A stretch of DNA of 64,000 bases from a virus: IMG/VR virus record IMGVR_UViG_3300022856_000003. One strand, written 5' to 3'. This document shows, in pieces, positions 2,646 to 58,685 of this stretch. The notes beneath the pieces are model-generated. The model had not been told where the DNA came from. It saw only the letters and a list, made by a program, of their open reading frames with translations, and searched no databases. The stretch's first letter is position 1. Each line of letters starts with the position of its first letter. The translations under genes were made by a program, and so were the position numbers.

Positions 2646-5600
2646 GCCAGAAGAACGCAACGTCCAGATCAATCGACTCGACAAGAAGCTCAAGGCGTAT
2701 GGGTTCGCCACCTGGATGCACTGGGTTCCTGAGACGTTCACTATTCGATTGGCGATCCGCCTAAAGGAAAGCAGTGTCAGGATCGACGAAGCCCGCGTCC
2801 TCCATCTCACCGACGAGCAGATCGATGGATGGGCGGCGAATCTGGCTGTCGCCTTGTCGCCGCTTCGACTTCCAGCCCCGACGCTGGAAGGAGAAACGAA
2901 GCCATGACCCCAACCGTCTGGACAAATGGCCGTGAAGGTCAGCCCGAAGAAGATGTCGAGTTCATCTACCTCGCATACAAGTCTGGTGATAGGAGGAAGA
3001 CCCTCATCGTCGCCCCGGTCCATGATTCCCACCCAGACACCAGCGTCCTTTTGCGTTCCCTGATGCACTACGCAAAGGGGAAGGGTAATAAGTTCAAGTG
3101 GTGGTGGGCTCCCTTAGATTCCCCAACCCACCTCCCTGGTGAAGATCCACCGGAAGAAACATGACCCCCATCGAAACCATCGCAGCAGCTCTGATCGTCG
3201 TAGGACTTGACCCTGATCTGGAGATCTATGGCATCCAGCATCAACCAGGAGAAGGTCCTCCCTTCCTTGCCTACTGTGTGAACACACACGAACGGCGAGG
3301 AGAGACGCCCCGGCTCGCTGCCGACCTCTTCGCGGCTGAGCCCATCGTGTCGACGACCCCGTGGAAGGCATGGACCGACGATGATGATGCTCGTCATGGG
3401 TTCACGAGGAAGTGGAAGGGCGTCCGTATCCGTGTCATCCAGGGAGCTGTCTACGACGCCACCGAACCAGGCGACGAGGATCAGTTCGACTGGAACGTCC
3501 GCTACTACCTCCACGCCGACAGTGAGCTGACCCTGGCTCACAAGTTGGACCTGCCACGCATGACCATCGATCAGGTGCAGATGGGTGCCTCGTCCTTCGG
3601 TAACAAGGTCATCGTCGGAATCCAGAACCAACAGAAGAAGGCTCTCCGTTCTCGAGCTGAGAGCCAGATGGCTACGATGCGTGCCGCTGGACAAATGCCA
3701 GAAGGTGAGCACTAGATGGAGAGATTCATCTATCGAGTGCGTCGGGCGATATACAGGTTCGCGTTCGACTACATCAAGCCAGATCCACCCATCCTTCAGG
3801 TGAAGCCAGAGGTGGGCGATACCCGCTTCGCTGAGGCCAAGTTCACTGGCGAGTACAGGGGATCGGTGAAGATGCCGAAGAGGACGAAGCTCGTAGACAC
3901 CTCTGCATTTGCCTTGGTGATGGCGAGCAACTGGATGGTCCTCCGAGCTGAGGACCAGGGCATGAGCGGTGTCCTCTTGTCCGAGGCGTTCGAGTACACG
4001 ATCAAGTACGAGATCGACTACAGACCCATCAACCCTATGTCGACCGGGCTCCAGCCGATGGACCCCGCAGGCATCCGCCAACTCATCGTCAGTATGCTGG
4101 AAGCCGCCCAGGCTGAGCCCGATGTCGAAGAGGAGGAGAGTGAGCCTGCCACTGTGATCCAGCTCTTTGGAATCCCCGGAGGAAAGACAGATTTCCCTGA
4201 CCCACTCGACCCGATCGACCCTGACCCGCTCGACACTTGGCAGGAAGACAGACCATGAGCCGCACACCATCGATTCCTACGCTGACAACGATCGAGTGGG
4301 GCGAGTCCCCGCTCTCATTCAAGATGACCATCCAGAAGATGCCATTCGGGAAGAATCCGTGGCATTGGAAGGTGTGGTCCACCGCTGACGGTGAGGACAA
4401 GCTCTTGATCAAGCGGAAGGCCGCGACCGAAGACAAGGCTCTCGCTGAGGCTGAGGACTACGTCGAGAACGACTTGAGTGTCCGCATTCAGTTGGCGGCG
4501 AAGATGTCGGAGTTGAAGGCCACGGAGAAGATCGAGCAGATGCGATCCGTTGAGGCTGACCTCGCCGCCGCGAACTCACCCGTCTGATGATGAACGTCCG
4601 GTTCTGCATGGGCGACCAGATCGGCCCGCCGCCTCCTGGCGGCTACAAGCTGATGCTCAATTCATCGAAGAACTGGGTGCAGATCGACGTGTACGAGTGG
4701 TGGATGCTCAAAGGTCCTGTTCATCGAGCCAAGAGGGCCATTGAAGGTGCTGAGACGCTCGAGGAAGTTCGGATAGGGCTTGAGATGTCAGGTGCAGAGA
4801 AGTGGGAAGGGCCGATGCCATGAATGACGTGGAGAGCAGACGAAATCGATTGCGCGAGATTCTCGAAGCTCGTGGAGACCTCTCCTGTTTGGCTGTGGAC
4901 ACAGTTGACTCGATCATGGCCGACCTAGATGAGTTTCTAATCAGGGACGTGATTGTCCAGATGCACATCCCCACGTCGCAGCTAGGCCCCAGGATCGTCT
5001 GGTGGTTGCTCGTCATCGAGACTCAACTCGGAGGCAAGCCCATCGTCCGCAACCGCGTGGTGACTGGTGATCCGATCGCGGCCTATATCGAGTACTGCGA
5101 GACTCACAGGGGAGCACATTCACTTCGGAACACGGTGCAGCTCACCGAAGACCAGGCCGCGACCTGGAATGAGAAGTTCCCGCCGTCCGATTGATTGACC
5201 CAACGCTCGACCACTGTTACACTGTGGTCACCTGCTGATCCCCTTCAAGGTGAAGGACCTCTGATGCCACTACAGCGAGATACCGTTTCCAGACGCGACC
5301 AAATCGAAATGGCCGAAAAGGTTCGTCGATTCATCGAGACCGAGCTGGGCGTAGGCGATCCAGCGGTGGAAGCCAACGTGCTCACTATCGCTCTGACGAC
5401 ATGCTCTGACGATCTGCTCGAAGTTGAGGCGACATGCGGTCGCGGGTCTGACGACCATCGGCTTGCCTCTCAGATCAGTCAGAAGGTCAGTGCGCTCCCT
5501 CTCAGGGATGCGACCTGATGATCACGAAGCTCAAGACTCATTCGCTCGCACTCATCCTCGCTCTGCCATTCGGTGCAGCGGCGGTTCACGCTGTCGCTCA

Positions 5601-8042: not shown

Positions 8043-8423
8043 ATGAAAGCCCGACTCAGTCTGTCGATCTCTGACGACGCCCACGATTCACTCCAAGGCA
8101 TGGCCAAGGAGTACGGCCTCAACCGATCACAGGCAGCGGAGCTGTGTATCAGTGCCTTCCTCCTTGACCGAGGTGGCCTGACACCCGATCAGACGAAACG
8201 ACTGGAGGGCATCGTCGAAGGCCACCTCCGAGGTCGACCGATGCCTCTTCGATCGGAGCAACCGCACAGGAAACTCGAGTGCGGCGTATCGAAGGTGATG
8301 TCGTCACCGACAACAGAAGCGCCTGACATGCATGAGATCACCTACTGGTGCCACGGAAGCTGCGGCCGTCACGGCCAGTGCATGTACCGAGGTATCAACC
8401 CGATGAAGGAAGCTGGCTGTTGA
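8043..8423 (+). CDS. Putative ribbon-helix-helix (CopG-like) DNA-binding protein
   Basis: MKARLSLSISDDAHDSLQGMAKEYGLNRSQAAELCI shows an alternating beta ribbon plus helix-G-x-N/S-R-S-helix. Confidence 0.6.
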   Translation: MKARLSLSISDDAHDSLQGMAKEYGLNRSQAAELCISAFLLDRGGLTPDQTKRLEGIVEGHLRGRPMPLRSEQPHRKLECGVSKVMSSPTTEAPDMHEITYWCHGSCGRHGQCMYRGINPMKEAGC

Positions 8424-8574
8424 CCGTCATCTGTCCTAAGTGCTCCCGGAGGGTGAAATCCCGTGTTCCTCGCGGAGGTGATGGGAGTGCTGTTGTGCCC
8501 GTATGGCACAAGTCGAACGGCGAACCATGCCTTGGGCGATTCCGTACCGTGCCCTGGGGCGACCTGGAGGATGA

Positions 8575-8880
8575 GTGACCGTCGACCACCTCTACATCCT
8601 CCAGATGGCCGTCACAGGCGACCTCAAGGTTGGTCGAAGCAAGAAGCCGTTCGCTCGCATGAAGCAGCTCCAGACAGGTGCGCCGCATCGTCTCAAGCTG
8701 CTGGTCGTAGCTCGCTACCAGGGTCACCGTGAATCTCGAGTTCACGACCGCATGGCGAAGTTCCGCCTAAGTGGAGGTAGTGAGTGGTTCAGCGTCGATG
8801 CGTTCGGCTCCATCCCCGACAACGTGGTGGAGCTGATGCCACCAGAAGTCATGGAAGACCCCGACTGGTGGAAGACGTGA
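8575..8880 (+). CDS. GIY-YIG nuclease, T5orf172/MUG113 family
   Basis: LYILQ...LKVGRSKKPFARMKQLQTGAP...ESRVH...SEWF. Confidence 0.8.
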   Translation: MTVDHLYILQMAVTGDLKVGRSKKPFARMKQLQTGAPHRLKLLVVARYQGHRESRVHDRMAKFRLSGGSEWFSVDAFGSIPDNVVELMPPEVMEDPDWWKT

Positions 8881-9372
8881 GCGAAACATTCCTCTTGTGC
8901 AAGAAATGGCGTGGCGCAATCAACGTCGCATCCATGCGTAGCTTCGGTAGCCGCGCCGAGCTTGAAACCCACCTCCGTTCAGACGGTCAGGCAGGGGGCT
9001 GGACCGAAAGATGGTTCCTCGTCTACAGGACATTCAGCGACAAGCCGCCAGAACGCCTGCTTGCGAAGGAGAAGAGAGAGATTGGGTTCGAGGTCTGACT
9101 CTGCACCATTGAGGCGAAACCCGCCCACACACACGTCCCTGATGCCCCCTCTGCGGCTCGGGACAGTTCTACGCACACTTACGACCCCTCGACCTTGAAG
9201 CTCTCTACGGGCCTCTGACGGGCTCCTGTGTCTATAGATGAACCGACAAGAGACCCTGGTGTTACCCTCAACGAAATCGATTTCGTCGGATCGACTCGGA
9301 TTGAATCCCTGAACAACTCAGATTAGAATAAGTATTAACAACGACGAACCACGAACCACATGGAGTTCACAC

Positions 9373-10239
9373 ATGCGACGACTGCTCATCGGCCTTCCTC
9401 TCTTGGCATCCCTGCTCTTCACAGGTTGCGATCTCGCCAGCGGATCGCTCGACGAACCGATTGGGCCTGATGCCTCCTACGTCGAGGATGACCCGAGCGC
9501 GGACAACGATGGTGACGGCTGGGCCGCTCGTTGGGACTGCGACGACGGCAACGAGGACATCAATCCAGACGCCTCCGACACGGTGGGCGATGGTGTCGAC
9601 CGCAACTGCGACGGCGTGGACGGCGTGGACTTCGACCTCGACGGTTGGGCTGGTGAACCCAGTGGCGGCCAGGACTGCAACGACGACGATCCGAACGTCA
9701 ACCCAGACGCCCTCGAGATTCCATATGACCAGATCGACAACAACTGCGACGGCGAAGATGCGAACGGCATCACGACCTGCGACTCGGTACCGACCCCCAC
9801 CGGCAACGACATCGGCGACGTGACCGAGGACTTCCTTCTACGAGACAGTCAGAACAACCCGATCATCCTCAGCGACTACTGCGGTATGGCCGTCGTCCTG
9901 GCCTCCGTCGCTCGATGGGAGCCGAACAGCCACGACCTCGCACCAGTGCTACAGGACTTCTACGAGGAGTACCGCGAACAGGGACTCATGGTCATCACGA
10001 TGGTCGGCGAAGGCGTCATGTTCGGCGGCGACTCTGCGACTCCCGACGACCTGGACTGGTGGACCAGCGAGTACGACATCACCCACCCTGTCGTGGGCGA
10101 CCCAGACTGGGAGATCTCTGACCGTTGGGAAGAGGATTTCTACCTCCCGTCCTTCATCCTCATCGCCCCGGGCATGCGGTTGGTGGCGAGGGACCTTCTG
10201 ACCGTGACCGAGGACGACATCCTCTCGATCCTCCCCTAA
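9373..10239 (+). CDS. Lipoprotein with MopE-related metal-binding repeats and a C-terminal redoxin (TlpA/AhpC-like) fold lacking CxxC
   Basis: Lipobox LLFTG-C. Two DCxDxxxxxNPxAxxxxxDxxDxNCDG repeats. DFLLRDSQNNPIILSDYCGMAVVL...ARWEPNS...LPSFILIAPGMRLV. Confidence 0.75.
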   Translation: MRRLLIGLPLLASLLFTGCDLASGSLDEPIGPDASYVEDDPSADNDGDGWAARWDCDDGNEDINPDASDTVGDGVDRNCDGVDGVDFDLDGWAGEPSGGQDCNDDDPNVNPDALEIPYDQIDNNCDGEDANGITTCDSVPTPTGNDIGDVTEDFLLRDSQNNPIILSDYCGMAVVLASVARWEPNSHDLAPVLQDFYEEYREQGLMVITMVGEGVMFGGDSATPDDLDWWTSEYDITHPVVGDPDWEISDRWEEDFYLPSFILIAPGMRLVARDLLTVTEDDILSILP

Positions 10240-10283
10240 GAAATCTACCCTCCCTGGTTGACATCCACAGCCAGGGAGGTAGA

Positions 10284-10815
10284 GTGTTCTCACTTCGAGG
10301 GGGAACACCCCAAAAGGTACCCGCAGCCGCAAGGCGAGACTGACGAAATCGATTTCACTTCGGTGAGAAAGACTAGAAGGAAGGTGCCAGGGAGGGAGCC
10401 CAGAGCGCCCCTTGAAGTAGTTGACCGACCCTCAAAGTCGCAGCCACCAGGAAGCCTTCGCGGGAATCCCAGGTGCTCGGAAGGGGAAGGGACAACAGCC
10501 CGAAGGCGAAAGCCGGAAGGTGCCGACCCTCCACTGGGAGCGCCGCAAGGCGATGTGGAACAGGCAGGACCAGCAAAGCTCTCGAGTTGAGCCATTCCGA
10601 CAACACCCTCGTCACCCGCTTCGGCAGGTCACGGGGGTGAAGTCGTTGTGCTTAACATCACCGACTGCTAGTATGTGCTTGCCAGCCAACAGCGGACAAG
10701 GCTTTGGCCCGTGAGTGCGCGTCCTGGGCGTGGGAGGGGAGACCCGCTTTACCACCGATGGATGCCTGCAAACCGGGGTGGGTAGCGAGTGGCTGACCAT
10801 GGCTGGCCTTGACCC
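10284..10815 (+). ncRNA. Candidate large structured non-coding RNA (~530 nt)
   Basis: Own promoter (10258-10285) and no credible ORF. Tetraloop hairpins: GCC-GCAA-GGC 10326, TCAC-TTCG-GTGA 10355, GGC-GAAA-GCC 10505, CGCC-GCAA-GGCG 10541, a long cUUCGg hairpin at 10604-10639, GGG-GAGA-CCC 10736. Confidence 0.65.
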
Positions 10816-12264
10816 TTGATCTTGCGTCTTTGATGCCGTTGTGCTATGTTCAACAGGTCGAGACGACCCATTGATACCTCGCAGGTGCGAGGACCGGGAG
10901 AAGCCATGGACCAAAATACCCTCATCCTGACAGCAACCGACGGCGAAGAGATTCGCCTCATGCCGAACAGCTCTGGCACGGAAGGCACACATGCCATCTG
11001 CGTCAACGGCTGGAACGAGGGGATTGAGCATTTCGACAAGCATGGGGACGGCAATACTGTCATCCCATGCTCACCCGATCGGATTGGAGCAATGTCACCC
11101 GCTGATGCCTACCAGGAGTTCTTCCGTCGCATGGACGAGGAGTCCATCGACATGATCGTCCACGGTATGAATGCGGGCTTCTACGAGATGGCACAGGTGG
11201 AGCTGGACTACGCACATCGACCCTACGTCCTCAAGGTCCTCGGTGAACAGATGGGATGGGTAGAGCCCAACCCTGGCAACCTGACCTACTCGGCGTTTCG
11301 TTCACTGCCGACGATCGTTGGTCCAGTGAGTGCTGCGGACATCAACGGTTGCCTCGACGTGGTGAACGGATGAGAGCCAAGACCGAAATCGCGTACCACG
11401 CTGAGGAGCAGCTCTCCGCAGCACTACAGCTTGTGGCAGCTCTCGTCCTCACCGACGAGGAAGTTGCCGAAACGGCTCCTGATGCACGTCCAGGGAACCT
11501 CGTAGGGTGGGCCGAGTCGACGCGCAAGGAGATGCTCGACGAGCACAACAGACCGAAGATCGTGGCGATGCTCAAGCGTCGCGGGTACTACACGAACACG
11601 CATATCGGGTTCCCGCTGGCCTCGTTGAGTTCGCCAGGCCCTCGCGCACTCGAGGACGGCCTCGAGAAGTGTAGAGCCATCTCTGATGCCATACGAGATG
11701 GATCTATCAACTATGACCTCGACACTGGGCCGAAGAGCATGACTGATCGCCTTGTCCATGACGGGATGCGACAGGCCGATGCTGAATGGATAGTCAGAGC
11801 CCATGGCACAACGATGTTCCTCCTGGCGTCGATGGATAGGGTGATGGGACGAACGAAGTGACCGATCCCGAACCAGAGCGCGAGTACACAAGGAAGGAAG
11901 ACTTCATCTTCGATTTCCTCCTGTGGGCACTGCCAGGCATCCCGTATTTCGACACCGAGAAGAACCCGTTGAAGCGAATCAACGGAGACCAATGTGACTA
12001 CCCTGTCGACGACATTGTCCACCCGGCTGACTGGCCCGTTTGCTACACCCTCCTCTACACGAAGAGAGACGGAGCCGGAGAGTGCTGGACAAGTGCCATG
12101 GGATTCTCTCGATGGCTGTGGTTCGCGAGGCTCTGGCAGAAGATGGCGCTAAGGCACTACACGACCGAGCTTCGCAAGGACCAGAGAAAGTGGAAGCGAC
12201 GCCTTCCTCCTACTGGCTACGGCTACTCCGTGACCATCGTGCCGACGGTGTGGGTGGACTAGAC

Positions 12265-15527: not shown

Positions 15528-15562
15528 TTGACGTGCTCTGATTGTTCAGCTAGAATGATTGT

Positions 15563-38063: not shown

Positions 38064-38097
38064 AGCGCCTGCCCTTCGGGGTGGGCGCTCTTGCTTG
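38064..38097 (+). terminator. Intrinsic terminator-like hairpin
   Basis: AGCGCCTGCCC-TTCG-GGGTGGGCGCT followed by CTTGCTT, just after the stop of 37477..38046. Confidence 0.65.
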
Positions 38098-40852
38098 GGA
38101 GACCTTCTCTCGATTGACTTAACACCGAACCGATGCTATACTTCTGGCAGGGCGAGGTGCCCACCGGGAGGTCCCGAAGATGACTCAGTTGACCGAAATC
38201 TACATTCGACGAGCCCAGTACGCGCACATGAGCCGCCTCATGGGTTGCTTGTCGTCTCTCAACGGAGTGACGTTCCCGGTGAGCATCACCCAGGCGGAAA
38301 CCCTCTATGAGTGCAACGACGCCGAAGTAGAGATCAAGACTCCAGCGTGCTTCGTCCTGCTCTCGACAAGACAGGACTACGATCTGGACCACGTCGAGAC
38401 GATGGACACGACCCGTCTCGTCCGTCTCGTGAATATGCCCAATACACCCGGCTGGTGGCGCGTTCAGTGGCCTCCTGTCAAGTGATCGGAGACGACTCAA
38501 TCCTCGACCTGATACTCGAGGAGATGGCCGCTCAGGACGCAGCCGAGGACAAGGTCTTCGTGGACGCGACCAGGCTCTCACTCATCCATGTGCTCATGGC
38601 TCATCGCCTAAAGAAGGCGGATCGTGCTTCCAACTACAGGTGGAAGAAAGCCCAGAAGATCAAGAATGCTCGGAGGAAAGCTCGGCACGATCTACTTCAG
38701 TTTCACAGGGCAAATCTCCTTCGTGCGATGCAGAGTCCAGCTCAACGACTCGTCGATGTGTTGGCTGCTCGGCGTGACCAGATTCAGCGCGAAATCGATT
38801 TCGCCAAAAAGCTCAAGACCCCAAAAATCCTCCAGGTTCTCCTGATGGACCACAATGGGGTCATGGTCCCTATCCCTGGGTTCCTAGTGGATGCATCCGT
38901 CGACTACGGGCTCGACTCGCATTCTTTGAAGCTCCGCATTCGAGGAGTATCGACAGGTGCGAACTGGGAAAAGTGCCTGGACATGTTGGCTGGCAAATGA
39001 GCACAGACTTCGACGACATCCTTGATCTGGCACCAGCCCTCTACGCACGCATAGCGGAGCTGGAGGTAGAGAAGCTTGCGGAGATCAGAGCCAGGGTGTC
39101 CGCAGAGACGGAGATCAAGGCCGCTGACGAGGCCAACGCAAAGCTGACTCGGAAGGTCCTTGATCAAGCGGAAGCGTTTAGGCGCGAGGCATTCAGGTTG
39201 AATGCGGACAAGAAGTCCATCAAGGCTCGCCTGATGGTGCTGGAAGGGAAGAGGGAGTTGAAGAACTCCGTAAGAGATGAGTTCCTTGTCCACATGGATT
39301 GGGTCGATGAAGCTGCGTTCGTCTCCGTCCGAGCGTTTCAACAGAACTTGATCTCCACGCAGTTGGTTCCAGAGTCGATCCCGTCAGAAGCTATCCGGCT
39401 TCAAGTCCGCGCGACTCTCGACTCCTGGTTCAAGACAAAGGCACCCAGGCCGGGCGAGCCACCACTTTTGATCTCCTACGCACAGATCGCCGAGCGTGCA
39501 ATAGAAGACCGCAACACGACCACTGGGTACGAACATGTCGGCTACGACGATCCCGACGATCCCAATGACATCTGGTCGGATTACGACGAGTTCGGTAGAC
39601 GGACAATCCCTTTTTAGGACAGACCATGAGAAGAGCTAAGCAACCAACAGAAGCGACCGAGACCGACTACGACGGCGACTATGAGACCTCGTACAAGGCT
39701 CACTTCGACGCGAAGCGCGCTGCGTACAGGTCGGTAGGATTCGGGGAGCTTTTCCCGATGACCAACGACCAGATGAGGCGAGTCGTCGAGAAGAGCGAGA
39801 TGGGCTTCATGGTCCCGAAGGGCTACGGCACGCCGACGTTTCGTCTGTGTCAGCTCTGCGTCCAGGAACGTGGTCTGATCAGAGTCGAGGAGGGAACGGT
39901 CGTTTGGAAGTCCCAGCATCACGCAAAGTGGGAGTTGGATGGGATGGGAGACTTCATGGAAGTCACCGCTCGCAACGAACATGGAGACATGGGGATCTGG
40001 CATCTAGATCTCCCTACTCACCTCGATAACGACTGGGAGTAATCGACGCCCCTACGCTTGCGACCGTGCGACCGTTGATGTACAATGTGGTTGTTCAGCG
40101 AACCGATAACCATCGAGGTGATGGCATGACTAACGGACTCTCCCGACAGATTGCGCGACAAACAGCGCGAACCCTCGCCGCCCAGCGCGCAGCGACCATC
40201 TTCGCAGCGCAGCAGATGGCCGACATCGCTGACCTCGTCGAAATCGCCCGCTCCGAAGGACCCGAGTCCGCAATGCAGTTCGTCGACTCCGACGCTGACG
40301 CTGTGACATTCGGTGCGCTCGTTCAGCTCGCACTCGAAATCGGCACCCCGCTCATCGCGCTCGTCAATCCCGAGAAGGCCATCCGCGCCCGAATCCCCTG
40401 CATCACTCTCCGAGAGGATGGAACCCAGGGAGTCCGAATGGTCTTCAGCAACCGAGGTCGATACGGCGTCGTCTGCTTCAAAAACGGTGGCCACGTTGCC
40501 CACGTTGCCGAAATGACGACCGCCAACGCAGTGGACTGCCACAACGGAGCGAAGGAGATTCGCTACTACCGCAATCGCTTCGACGTAGTCGCGGTGACCG
40601 CGTGAGGCATCTCGCCGAGTACCTTCTCTGCCTCGCGGTGGGAGCTGGGATCATCATCCTGGCACTGGCCGCGATGCTCGAGCCCGATCCCATCTCGGAG
40701 CGCATTTCCCGTGACGCTAGTCAGGCAGCAGCAGTGCTGGACGATGCCGAGGCACTCAACGACTTCCGCCTCTGCATGGCGCACCAGCTACGCCAGTACG
40801 AGCCCACCGATGCCGAGTACGCAGCCGCTCAGACGTTCTGCGAGGTGACACA

Positions 40853-58653: not shown

Positions 58654-58685
58654 AAGCCCTGCCCTAATTTTGGGGTAGGGTTTTT
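58654..58685 (+). terminator. Intrinsic terminator
   Basis: AAGCCCTGCCCT-AATTTT-GGGGTAGGGTTT followed by TT, after the DUF1257 gene. Confidence 0.7.

Follow-up and report, generated by a model that had tools for sequence, protein, structure and literature searches.

Large folded RNAs with no known job are rare and often carried by phages; examples are GOLLD, ROOL, OLE and the "twin-box" RNA. tRNA genes are often found adjacent to GOLLD and ROOL. Other comparable systems are the promoter-driven, untranslated primer transcripts exemplified by ColE1 RNA II and T4 oriF/oriG, and the antitermination sites nut boxB and put of phages lambda and HK022, which are 15-70 nt in size.

The locus described here lies in an uncultured phage of ~144 kb, one part of which constitutes the window (the whole 64-kb stretch of DNA that was analysed). 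Nearly all genes of the window are carried on the + strand, and in this otherwise densely coded genome a gap of 666 nt, between positions 10240 and 10905, is free of genes. The gap and its surroundings are arranged as follows.

8575-8880: gene for a T5orf172/MUG113-type nuclease
9373-10239: gene for a 288-aa protein upstream of the gap (stop codon 10237-10239), with MopE metal-binding repeats, an AhpC/TSA domain and a lipoprotein-like signal
10292-10820, + strand: candidate untranslated structured RNA, with its best-defined core at 10322-10710
10906: ATG of the gene for a 155-aa protein downstream of the gap, first in its operon, with the SD site GGGAG at 10896-10900

Both genes flanking the gap are complete, the AhpC-like gene having its own stop and the 155-aa gene its own SD and ATG. 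The latter opens a translationally coupled operon for proteins of 155, 163, 134 and 937 aa; the 937-aa protein has a weak match to major capsid proteins. Residues 82-131 of the 155-aa protein match 11 separate stretches in a 5,123-aa protein, so that its C-terminal part is also a repeat module of giant proteins. On the other side, the lipoprotein accessory gene has its own promoter at 9301. A likely 73-aa gene at 8877-9098, present in some public gene calls, has a GTG start codon overlapping the T5orf172 nuclease stop (GTGA); because of it, the truly gene-free part preceding the lipoprotein gene is only ~270 nt long. Nothing real was found by Rfam at E ≤ 10 over 8400-9500.

The locus shares with GOLLD and ROOL that it is phage-borne, several hundred nucleotides long, devoid of ORFs and provided with many hairpins capped by stable tetraloops. 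Unlike these two RNAs, which are widespread, it has neither relatives that could be found nor a terminator of its own, and its window holds no tRNA gene. An earlier note, made from the sequence alone, had considered membership in a GOLLD- or ROOL-like class. This proposal was not borne out, as the covariance models of GOLLD (RF01998) and ROOL (RF03087) gave no match even at E ≤ 10, and both were rejected. Scanning the whole window with cmscan and Rfam 15 at the gathering score yielded 0 matches; the scan of positions 10150-10950 at E ≤ 10 with permissive filters returned only two chance miRNA matches, falling on a palindrome at 10244-10283 ("mir-2300", on both strands). With Rfam 15 thus empty, GOLLD, ROOL, RNase P, tmRNA, introns and Csr/Rsm RNAs all went undetected. 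ARAGORN reported no tRNA and no tmRNA in the window, so that the absence of an RNase P or tmRNA signature noticed earlier is upheld by Rfam and, for tmRNA, by ARAGORN as well. RNase P RNA, 6S, SRP RNA and known ribozymes were dismissed for want of an Rfam match, and a group I or group II intron on the same ground and because the flanking genes are complete, with no split host gene.

The "twin-box" RNA provides a further comparison. The locus is like it in being a gene-free segment of ~0.4-0.5 kb in a large phage, with words that occur exactly twice and a small nuclease gene nearby. It differs in that the nuclease is of the T5orf172/MUG113 type and is located 1.4 kb upstream, with two genes in between. 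The catalogued Polynucleobacter-1 motif (RF01718) has the core CRGGGA-YGGAAR ... RYCACUAYCC ... GGAYG, as given in the Stockholm alignment of its authors (Weinberg et al. 2010, PMC2864571). The RF01718 model had no match in 10150-10950 at E ≤ 10, and the local string nearest to the core, CAGGGAGGGAGC at 10388, departs from the consensus. A scan of viral contigs with a pattern based on this core identified at least 120 loci; among those listed, 96 had full flanks and 75 the complete core. The 75 core-complete loci were aligned with MAFFT and converted into a 709-position nhmmer profile, which had no match in the window (--max, E ≤ 100). With both the RF01718 model and the 709-position profile negative, the Polynucleobacter-1/"twin-box" RNA of T4-like phages was rejected as a candidate. 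Short words do occur twice in the locus (GCCGCAAGGCGA and GGAAGGTGCC); equating them with the "twin-box" boxes would need family membership. Most of the at least 120 viral contigs in that scan, made with the pattern GGGAYGGAAR-N18-40-CACTAYCC, have the Polynucleobacter-1 core together with conserved blocks several hundred nucleotides downstream. These blocks include GGTACCGGA..ACCGCC and a GCCC.....GGGC hairpin, an arrangement in keeping with a longer phage RNA of which the catalogued motif makes up only the first third.

The stretch from 10240 to 10905 is non-coding. Between 10261 and 10860, none of the six frames has a codon-usage score above background (zero), and the ORFs of the stretch match no Pfam or PHROG family; both results agree with the initial remark that no ORF here has the codon style of the phage. 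Public gene calls leave the gap empty in five cases out of six, the remaining one placing ORFs of 80 and 62 aa on the − strand. One could still imagine that one or more small proteins encoded in the stretch were overlooked by ordinary gene finders, since ORFs of 80-143 aa are present on both strands and the gene caller of one assembly did predict two such ORFs. However, long ORFs arise at random in DNA of 61% G+C, and no promoter-like site was found on the − strand across the window. Set beside the codon-usage scores, the predominantly empty gene calls and the lack of similarity to Pfam and PHROG families, these points make a protein-coding role extremely unlikely.

The signals recognized in and around the gap, and the promoter class to which one of them belongs, are listed below.

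10244-10283, + strand: imperfect 13-bp palindrome just after the stop of the 288-aa gene, lacking a U-run, with the promoter −35 box in its loop
10258-10285, + strand: predicted sigma-70-type promoter TTGACA-16-TAGAGT (10/12 matches), predicted to start transcription near A10292
10345-10356, no strand: copy of the genome-wide 12-bp palindrome GAAATCGATTTC, ~53 nt past the predicted start
10822-10850, + strand: weak promoter-like site TTGCGT-17-TATGTT (8/12 matches), below the scan threshold
10877-10892, + strand: leader hairpin CCUCGC-AGGU-GCGAGG, preceding the SD and the ATG of the 155-aa gene
5195, 10258, 15528, 18675, 22852, 28640, 33130, 38114, 53644, 55321 and 59232, + strand: sites of the form TTGACN-N16-18-TANNNT

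The promoter at 10258-10285 points into the stretch, as had been proposed, and transcription would begin near position 10292. Scanning the window for TTGACN-N16-18-TANNNT returned 11 sites on the + strand and 0 on the − strand, a bias that provides strong evidence for this promoter class being real. At nine of the 11 sites, a gene start is found within 20-60 nt, in many cases after a small AAGGU-loop hairpin; the exceptions, with no gene start nearby, are the sites at 10258 and 15528. The promoters at 15528, 18675 and 28640 (family D9) have a longer conserved spacer, GATTGTTCAGCTA, in common. The "next promoter" that the earlier note placed at 10822 was not confirmed, since its 8/12 matches fall under the threshold of the promoter scan. 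The distance from this site to the leader hairpin is the same as that seen at other early promoters.

The leader hairpin itself is a variant of the N5-AAGGU-N5' early-leader hairpins of this phage. Those with AAGGU loops (at 5247, 25865, 28693, 33197, 52236, 55385, 55398 and 59295) combine variable stems of 4-6 bp with a fixed loop and a C-G closure, and are located 10-20 nt ahead of an early-gene SD, just downstream of sigma-70-type promoters. At the opposite end of the gap, the palindrome at 10244-10283 looks like a terminator or a stabiliser hairpin, and as RNA it would form a 3' hairpin on the message of the upstream gene; windows that include it have folding z-scores of −2.9 and −2.5. No intrinsic terminator was found on the + strand between 10292 and 10905. 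The only canonical ones on this strand in the 64 kb are at 38065-38088, where a UUCG-capped hairpin stands just upstream of the promoter at 38114, and at 58655-58682. The T4-type late promoter TATAAATA is absent from the 64-kb window.

A palindrome copy was correctly placed inside the stretch, at 10345-10356. It is one of 15 copies of GAAATCGATTTC in the 64 kb (against 0 expected), the full set being at 621, 9273, 10345, 12730, 17294, 23757, 25783, 32066, 38791, 44415, 47010, 51036, 52158, 54971 and 61644. The sequence is often extended as CGAAATCGATTTCG. Copies occur in coding and non-coding DNA, in every reading frame and in differing contexts, often near promoters. GAAATCGATTTC is probably a site acting at the DNA level, either for a DNA-binding protein or as a modification or restriction motif. 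The idea that it codes for a C-terminal "EIDF" tag, left by a decayed gene end, was discarded because copies are found in all frames and contexts.

The stretch is rich in tetraloop hairpins on the + strand. The GNRA- and cUUCGg-capped elements noticed earlier are present within the interval originally given.

10326-10335, + strand: GCAA hairpin GCC-GCAA-GGC
10353-10368, + strand: cUUCGg hairpin UUUCAC-UUCG-GUGAGA, 6 bp, which forms in the fold of 10292-10371
10476-10485, + strand: GGAA hairpin CUC-GGAA-GGG
10505-10514, + strand: GAAA hairpin GGC-GAAA-GCC
10512-10521, + strand: GGAA hairpin GCC-GGAA-GGU, overlapping the preceding GAAA hairpin, so that only one of the two can form
10541-10552, + strand: GCAA hairpin CGCC-GCAA-GGCG
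10618-10625, + strand: cUUCGg cap GC-UUCG-GC, at the top of a long hairpin
10736-10745, + strand: GAGA hairpin GGG-GAGA-CCC

Counting every GNRA or cUUCGg loop with at least three closing pairs, the 532-nt stretch (10284-10815) has 7 hairpins on the + strand versus 1 on the − strand. The window averages 1.0 hairpins per 532 nt, and the stretch ranks first among ~2,540 sliding windows taken over the two strands. In dinucleotide shuffles the count is 1.28 ± 1.1, with 0 of 1000 reaching 7. Stems are mostly 3 bp long; when at least 4 bp are demanded, only 2 hairpins remain, a number that is not significant (86 of 1000 shuffles). As a positive control, 75 genuine large phage RNAs were scored in the same manner, giving a mean of 1.8 in the sense orientation and 0.7 in antisense, with a maximum of 4. 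The higher sense mean indicates that the statistic behaves as expected for real RNAs, and the count of the stretch lies above those of all 75 controls. Counted with stems of at least 3 bp, the tetraloop excess on the + strand is beyond chance. CG-N-AAGG is found 4 times in the stretch, against 0.26 expected. The linkers are purine-rich, as the first inspection had suggested, the purine fraction being 0.61 in 10292-10560 as compared to a window mean of 0.52 (standard deviation 0.02).

Several words are repeated within the stretch. The 12-mer GCCGCAAGGCGA, which forms a GCAA-capped hairpin, occurs at 10326-10337 and 10542-10553; the 10-mer GGAAGGTGCC at 10379-10388 and 10515-10524; and the 9-mer CCGACCCTC at 10425 and 10523. 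A direct repeat of at least 12 nt was seen in 28 of 2000 shuffles, and the four repeated 10-mers of the stretch compare with 0.26 in shuffles (p ~0.005). GGAAGGU and ACCCUCC together form a single small hairpin in the second copy; separated by 38 nt in the first, they could close one of the predicted domains (domain A, below). This arrangement hints at an old internal duplication within the stretch.

Folding energy over the whole 532 nt is unremarkable (z −0.56 on the + strand and +0.57 on the − strand, with 34 of 100 shuffles as stable as the + strand). The core at 10322-10710 gives z-scores of −1.45 on the + strand and −0.30 on the − strand, and its ensemble diversity is tighter on the + strand (z −0.96 versus +0.67). 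Three domains are predicted in this region.

10372-10418, + strand: domain A, a 47-nt hairpin that includes the first GGAAGGTGCC; pair probabilities 0.90-0.97
10447-10558, + strand: domain B, multibranched; pair probabilities 0.83-0.94
10563-10683, + strand: domain C, an imperfect long hairpin of 121 nt with the GC-UUCG-GC cap; pair probabilities 0.75-1.00

The z-scores of these domains are biased, as the boundaries were picked from the fold itself: −2.25 on the + strand and −0.42 on the − strand for domain A, −1.97 and −1.53 for domain B, −3.89 and −3.63 for domain C (0 of 200 shuffles as stable as the latter). Domain B has CCA/UGG, GCCUU/AAGGC, GCGG/CCGC and UCCCAG/CUGGGA as its closing helices and contains the GGAA and GAAA hairpins, the second GGAAGGTGCC and the second GCCGCAAGGCGA; in its predicted fold, the closing helix competes with the second GCAA hairpin. 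Domain C, whose mean positional entropy is 0.12, may be a DNA-level palindrome, because it is equally stable on the − strand; it could also be a processing site of the RNase III type. In the partition function, the first 80 nt and the final 130 nt lack a well-defined structure.

Relatives of the locus were sought at the level of both the DNA and the flanking proteins. All 18 runs containing the stretch are labelled as salt lake metagenomes, with none recorded as RNA. Over 10240-10905 there is 100% identity among six public contigs, and contigs from four further runs, which cover the stretch in part, show no variant there. The gene for the 937-aa protein was read on nine contigs, the longest on record being 144,042 bp and the longest fetched 144,017 bp (ERZ27315639); further contigs with this gene include JGI 3300005915, 3300023231 and SRR7529089. 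The stretch had no match by blastn, in distant mode, in 50,697 phage records, and its only paralogs inside the window are the 12-bp palindrome and the internal repeats. The pattern GGAAGGTGCC-N-GCCGCAAGGC(G) gave 0 matches in viral contigs and at least 119 in metagenome contigs; since neither nhmmer nor blastn extended the similarity of any of the latter, we consider them to be chance matches. Searches with the flanking proteins found no syntenic relatives. The 937-aa and 155-aa proteins retrieved only themselves from 5.8 billion proteins in a word-indexed search, and nothing from viral contigs or GenBank phages. A full HMMER search with the 155-aa protein produced 21 remote relatives, in unrelated contexts and with no upstream gap. 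Homologs of the T5orf172 nuclease are in densely packed contexts, with no adjacent gene-free stretch and no Rfam match. For the AAA ATPase, homologs were found in 39 viral contigs, and their full-length identity does not exceed 38%; an nhmmer search of these contigs with the stretch as query gave no match, and none of them has the palindrome or the hairpin hallmarks. In GenBank phages, the 534-aa protein has no relative above 30% identity; like the homologs of the nuclease and of the ATPase, its relatives belong to distant phages in which the stretch is missing. The lipoprotein gene, considered as an indicator of the host, returned only matches to its repeat motifs.

The main rival to an RNA-level interpretation is that the stretch represents a functionless spacer, that is, DNA at the junction between an inserted accessory cassette (the T5orf172 nuclease gene, the small ORF and the AhpC/MopE lipoprotein gene) and the capsid-like operon. 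It would have originated from a decayed gene or from imported DNA, and its hairpins and promoter-like site would have no role. The region does have the look of a plasticity zone, given the homing-endonuclease-type gene at 8575-8880 and the lipoprotein gene with its promoter at 9301. The overall folding energy, which is not significant, and the mostly short stems are in line with such a spacer, and the position of the −35 box within a terminator-like palindrome speaks against the RNA reading. On the other hand, it is rare for a phage to retain 0.6 kb of DNA that serves no purpose, residual protein similarity is absent in all frames, and the promoter belongs to a family found strictly on the + strand. 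Decayed coding DNA would not be expected to have a strand-specific excess of tetraloops, let alone the largest in 64 kb. On balance we regard the spacer as unlikely, though a serious contender. We judge it improbable that the stretch works as a DNA-level element, either as an R-loop replication origin primed by a purine-rich transcript or as an array of protein-binding sites made up of the repeats and GAAATCGATTTC. The combination of a promoter with ~0.5 kb of terminator-less transcript that is untranslated, structured and purine-rich would be reminiscent of ColE1 RNA II and T4 oriF/oriG. The purine fraction of 0.61 in the ~270 nt after the promoter is accompanied by an AT skew of 0.43 on the non-template strand, and the internal repeats of 9-12 bp, the copy of the genome-wide palindrome at 10345 and the similar stability of domain C on both strands would all fit a function in DNA. 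However, the repeats are only paired and irregularly spaced (65-216 bp), unlike iterons; the GC skew of the stretch is merely 0.08-0.10; and the cumulative GC-skew minimum of the window is near 15-16 kb, 5 kb from the stretch, which sets it apart from the ColE1 and T4 primers. The 7 to 1 asymmetry of the tetraloops likewise favours RNA.

Very unlikely, in our estimation, is a decoy ("sponge") RNA that would titrate a putative reader of the (A/G)AGGU-loop hairpins found before ~20 early genes. The resemblance to CsrB, CsrC and RsmX/Y/Z would lie in the promoter-driven, untranslated character of the stretch, in its many short hairpins and purine-rich GGA/AAGG words, and in the matching set of leader hairpins carried by the mRNAs of this phage, whose AAGGU-loop family would provide the targets. 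AAGG occurs 10 times against 2.5 expected, GGAA 8 times against 2.3 and GGA 17 times against 10.7, and GGAAGGUGCC is present twice. Yet, in contrast to the Csr/Rsm sponges, the loop word of the regulon is neither enriched nor found in loops of the stretch: [AG]AGGU occurs 3 times versus 1.8 expected, a count that 27% of windows reach, and the C...G pair that closes the leader hairpins is missing from every copy. Nearly every AAGG has its GG in predicted base pairs, and the C(GNAA)G-G tetraloop hairpins explain the AAGG excess. CsrB, CsrC and RsmX/Y/Z gave no Rfam match either.

Altogether, the absence of genes, the promoter with no ORF nearby to serve, the strand-specific tetraloop excess, the repeats and the better, tighter fold on the + strand point to an element acting as + strand RNA. 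The interpretation that we favour, and to which we attach slightly less than an even chance, is a structured, untranslated RNA driven by an early promoter, which would be either a stand-alone molecule or the long, perhaps processed, leader of the downstream operon. Within this interpretation, we divide the likelihood about equally between a stand-alone or processed RNA and a cis-acting leader. What had been proposed as a possible new large ncRNA stands as far as the non-coding character, the promoter and the strand-specific tetraloops are concerned, and falls as far as membership in a catalogued class is concerned; a place among the large structured ncRNAs is plausible, though unproven. In the proposed course of events, transcription would take place early in infection from the promoter at 10258-10285. 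In the RNA, a 5' part that is loosely folded and bears two tetraloop hairpins would precede the better-defined domains A, B and C. As no terminator is found between 10292 and 10905, though canonical ones exist elsewhere, the transcript probably continues into the operon for the 155-, 163-, 134- and 937-aa capsid-like proteins. For the same reason, the stretch may be a long leader and not a separate gene. With such read-through, the folded part would either serve as a long structured leader or be freed from the transcript through cleavage at the long hairpin. The many C(GNAA)G caps and the purine-rich joints suggest an RNA made compact by tertiary contacts, or else a platform for a binding protein.

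More tentatively, and as a possibility that we consider doubtful on its own, the structured untranslated RNA would be a stand-alone molecule of ~400-530 nt, made early by an orphan salt-lake phage lineage and belonging to a class without known relatives. Such a molecule could be a compact, tetraloop-stitched particle, or could offer a protein-binding platform around the two identical GCAA hairpins. The presence of promoter-proximal GNRA-type hairpins, two of them identical, ahead of a long operon is also a feature of lambda nut boxB and HK022 put. Unlike these short elements, the stretch covers 400-500 nt, and neither a boxA-like partner nor an N-like protein was identified.

If the structured RNA is real, even a phage lineage that stands isolated, and of whose proteins hardly any can be recognised, would be investing 0.5 kb of its genome in a folded RNA. 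It would also provide a promoter-driven non-coding unit against which the leader-hairpin regulon of the same genome could be compared. Each new large folded RNA represents a chance of a new RNA function.
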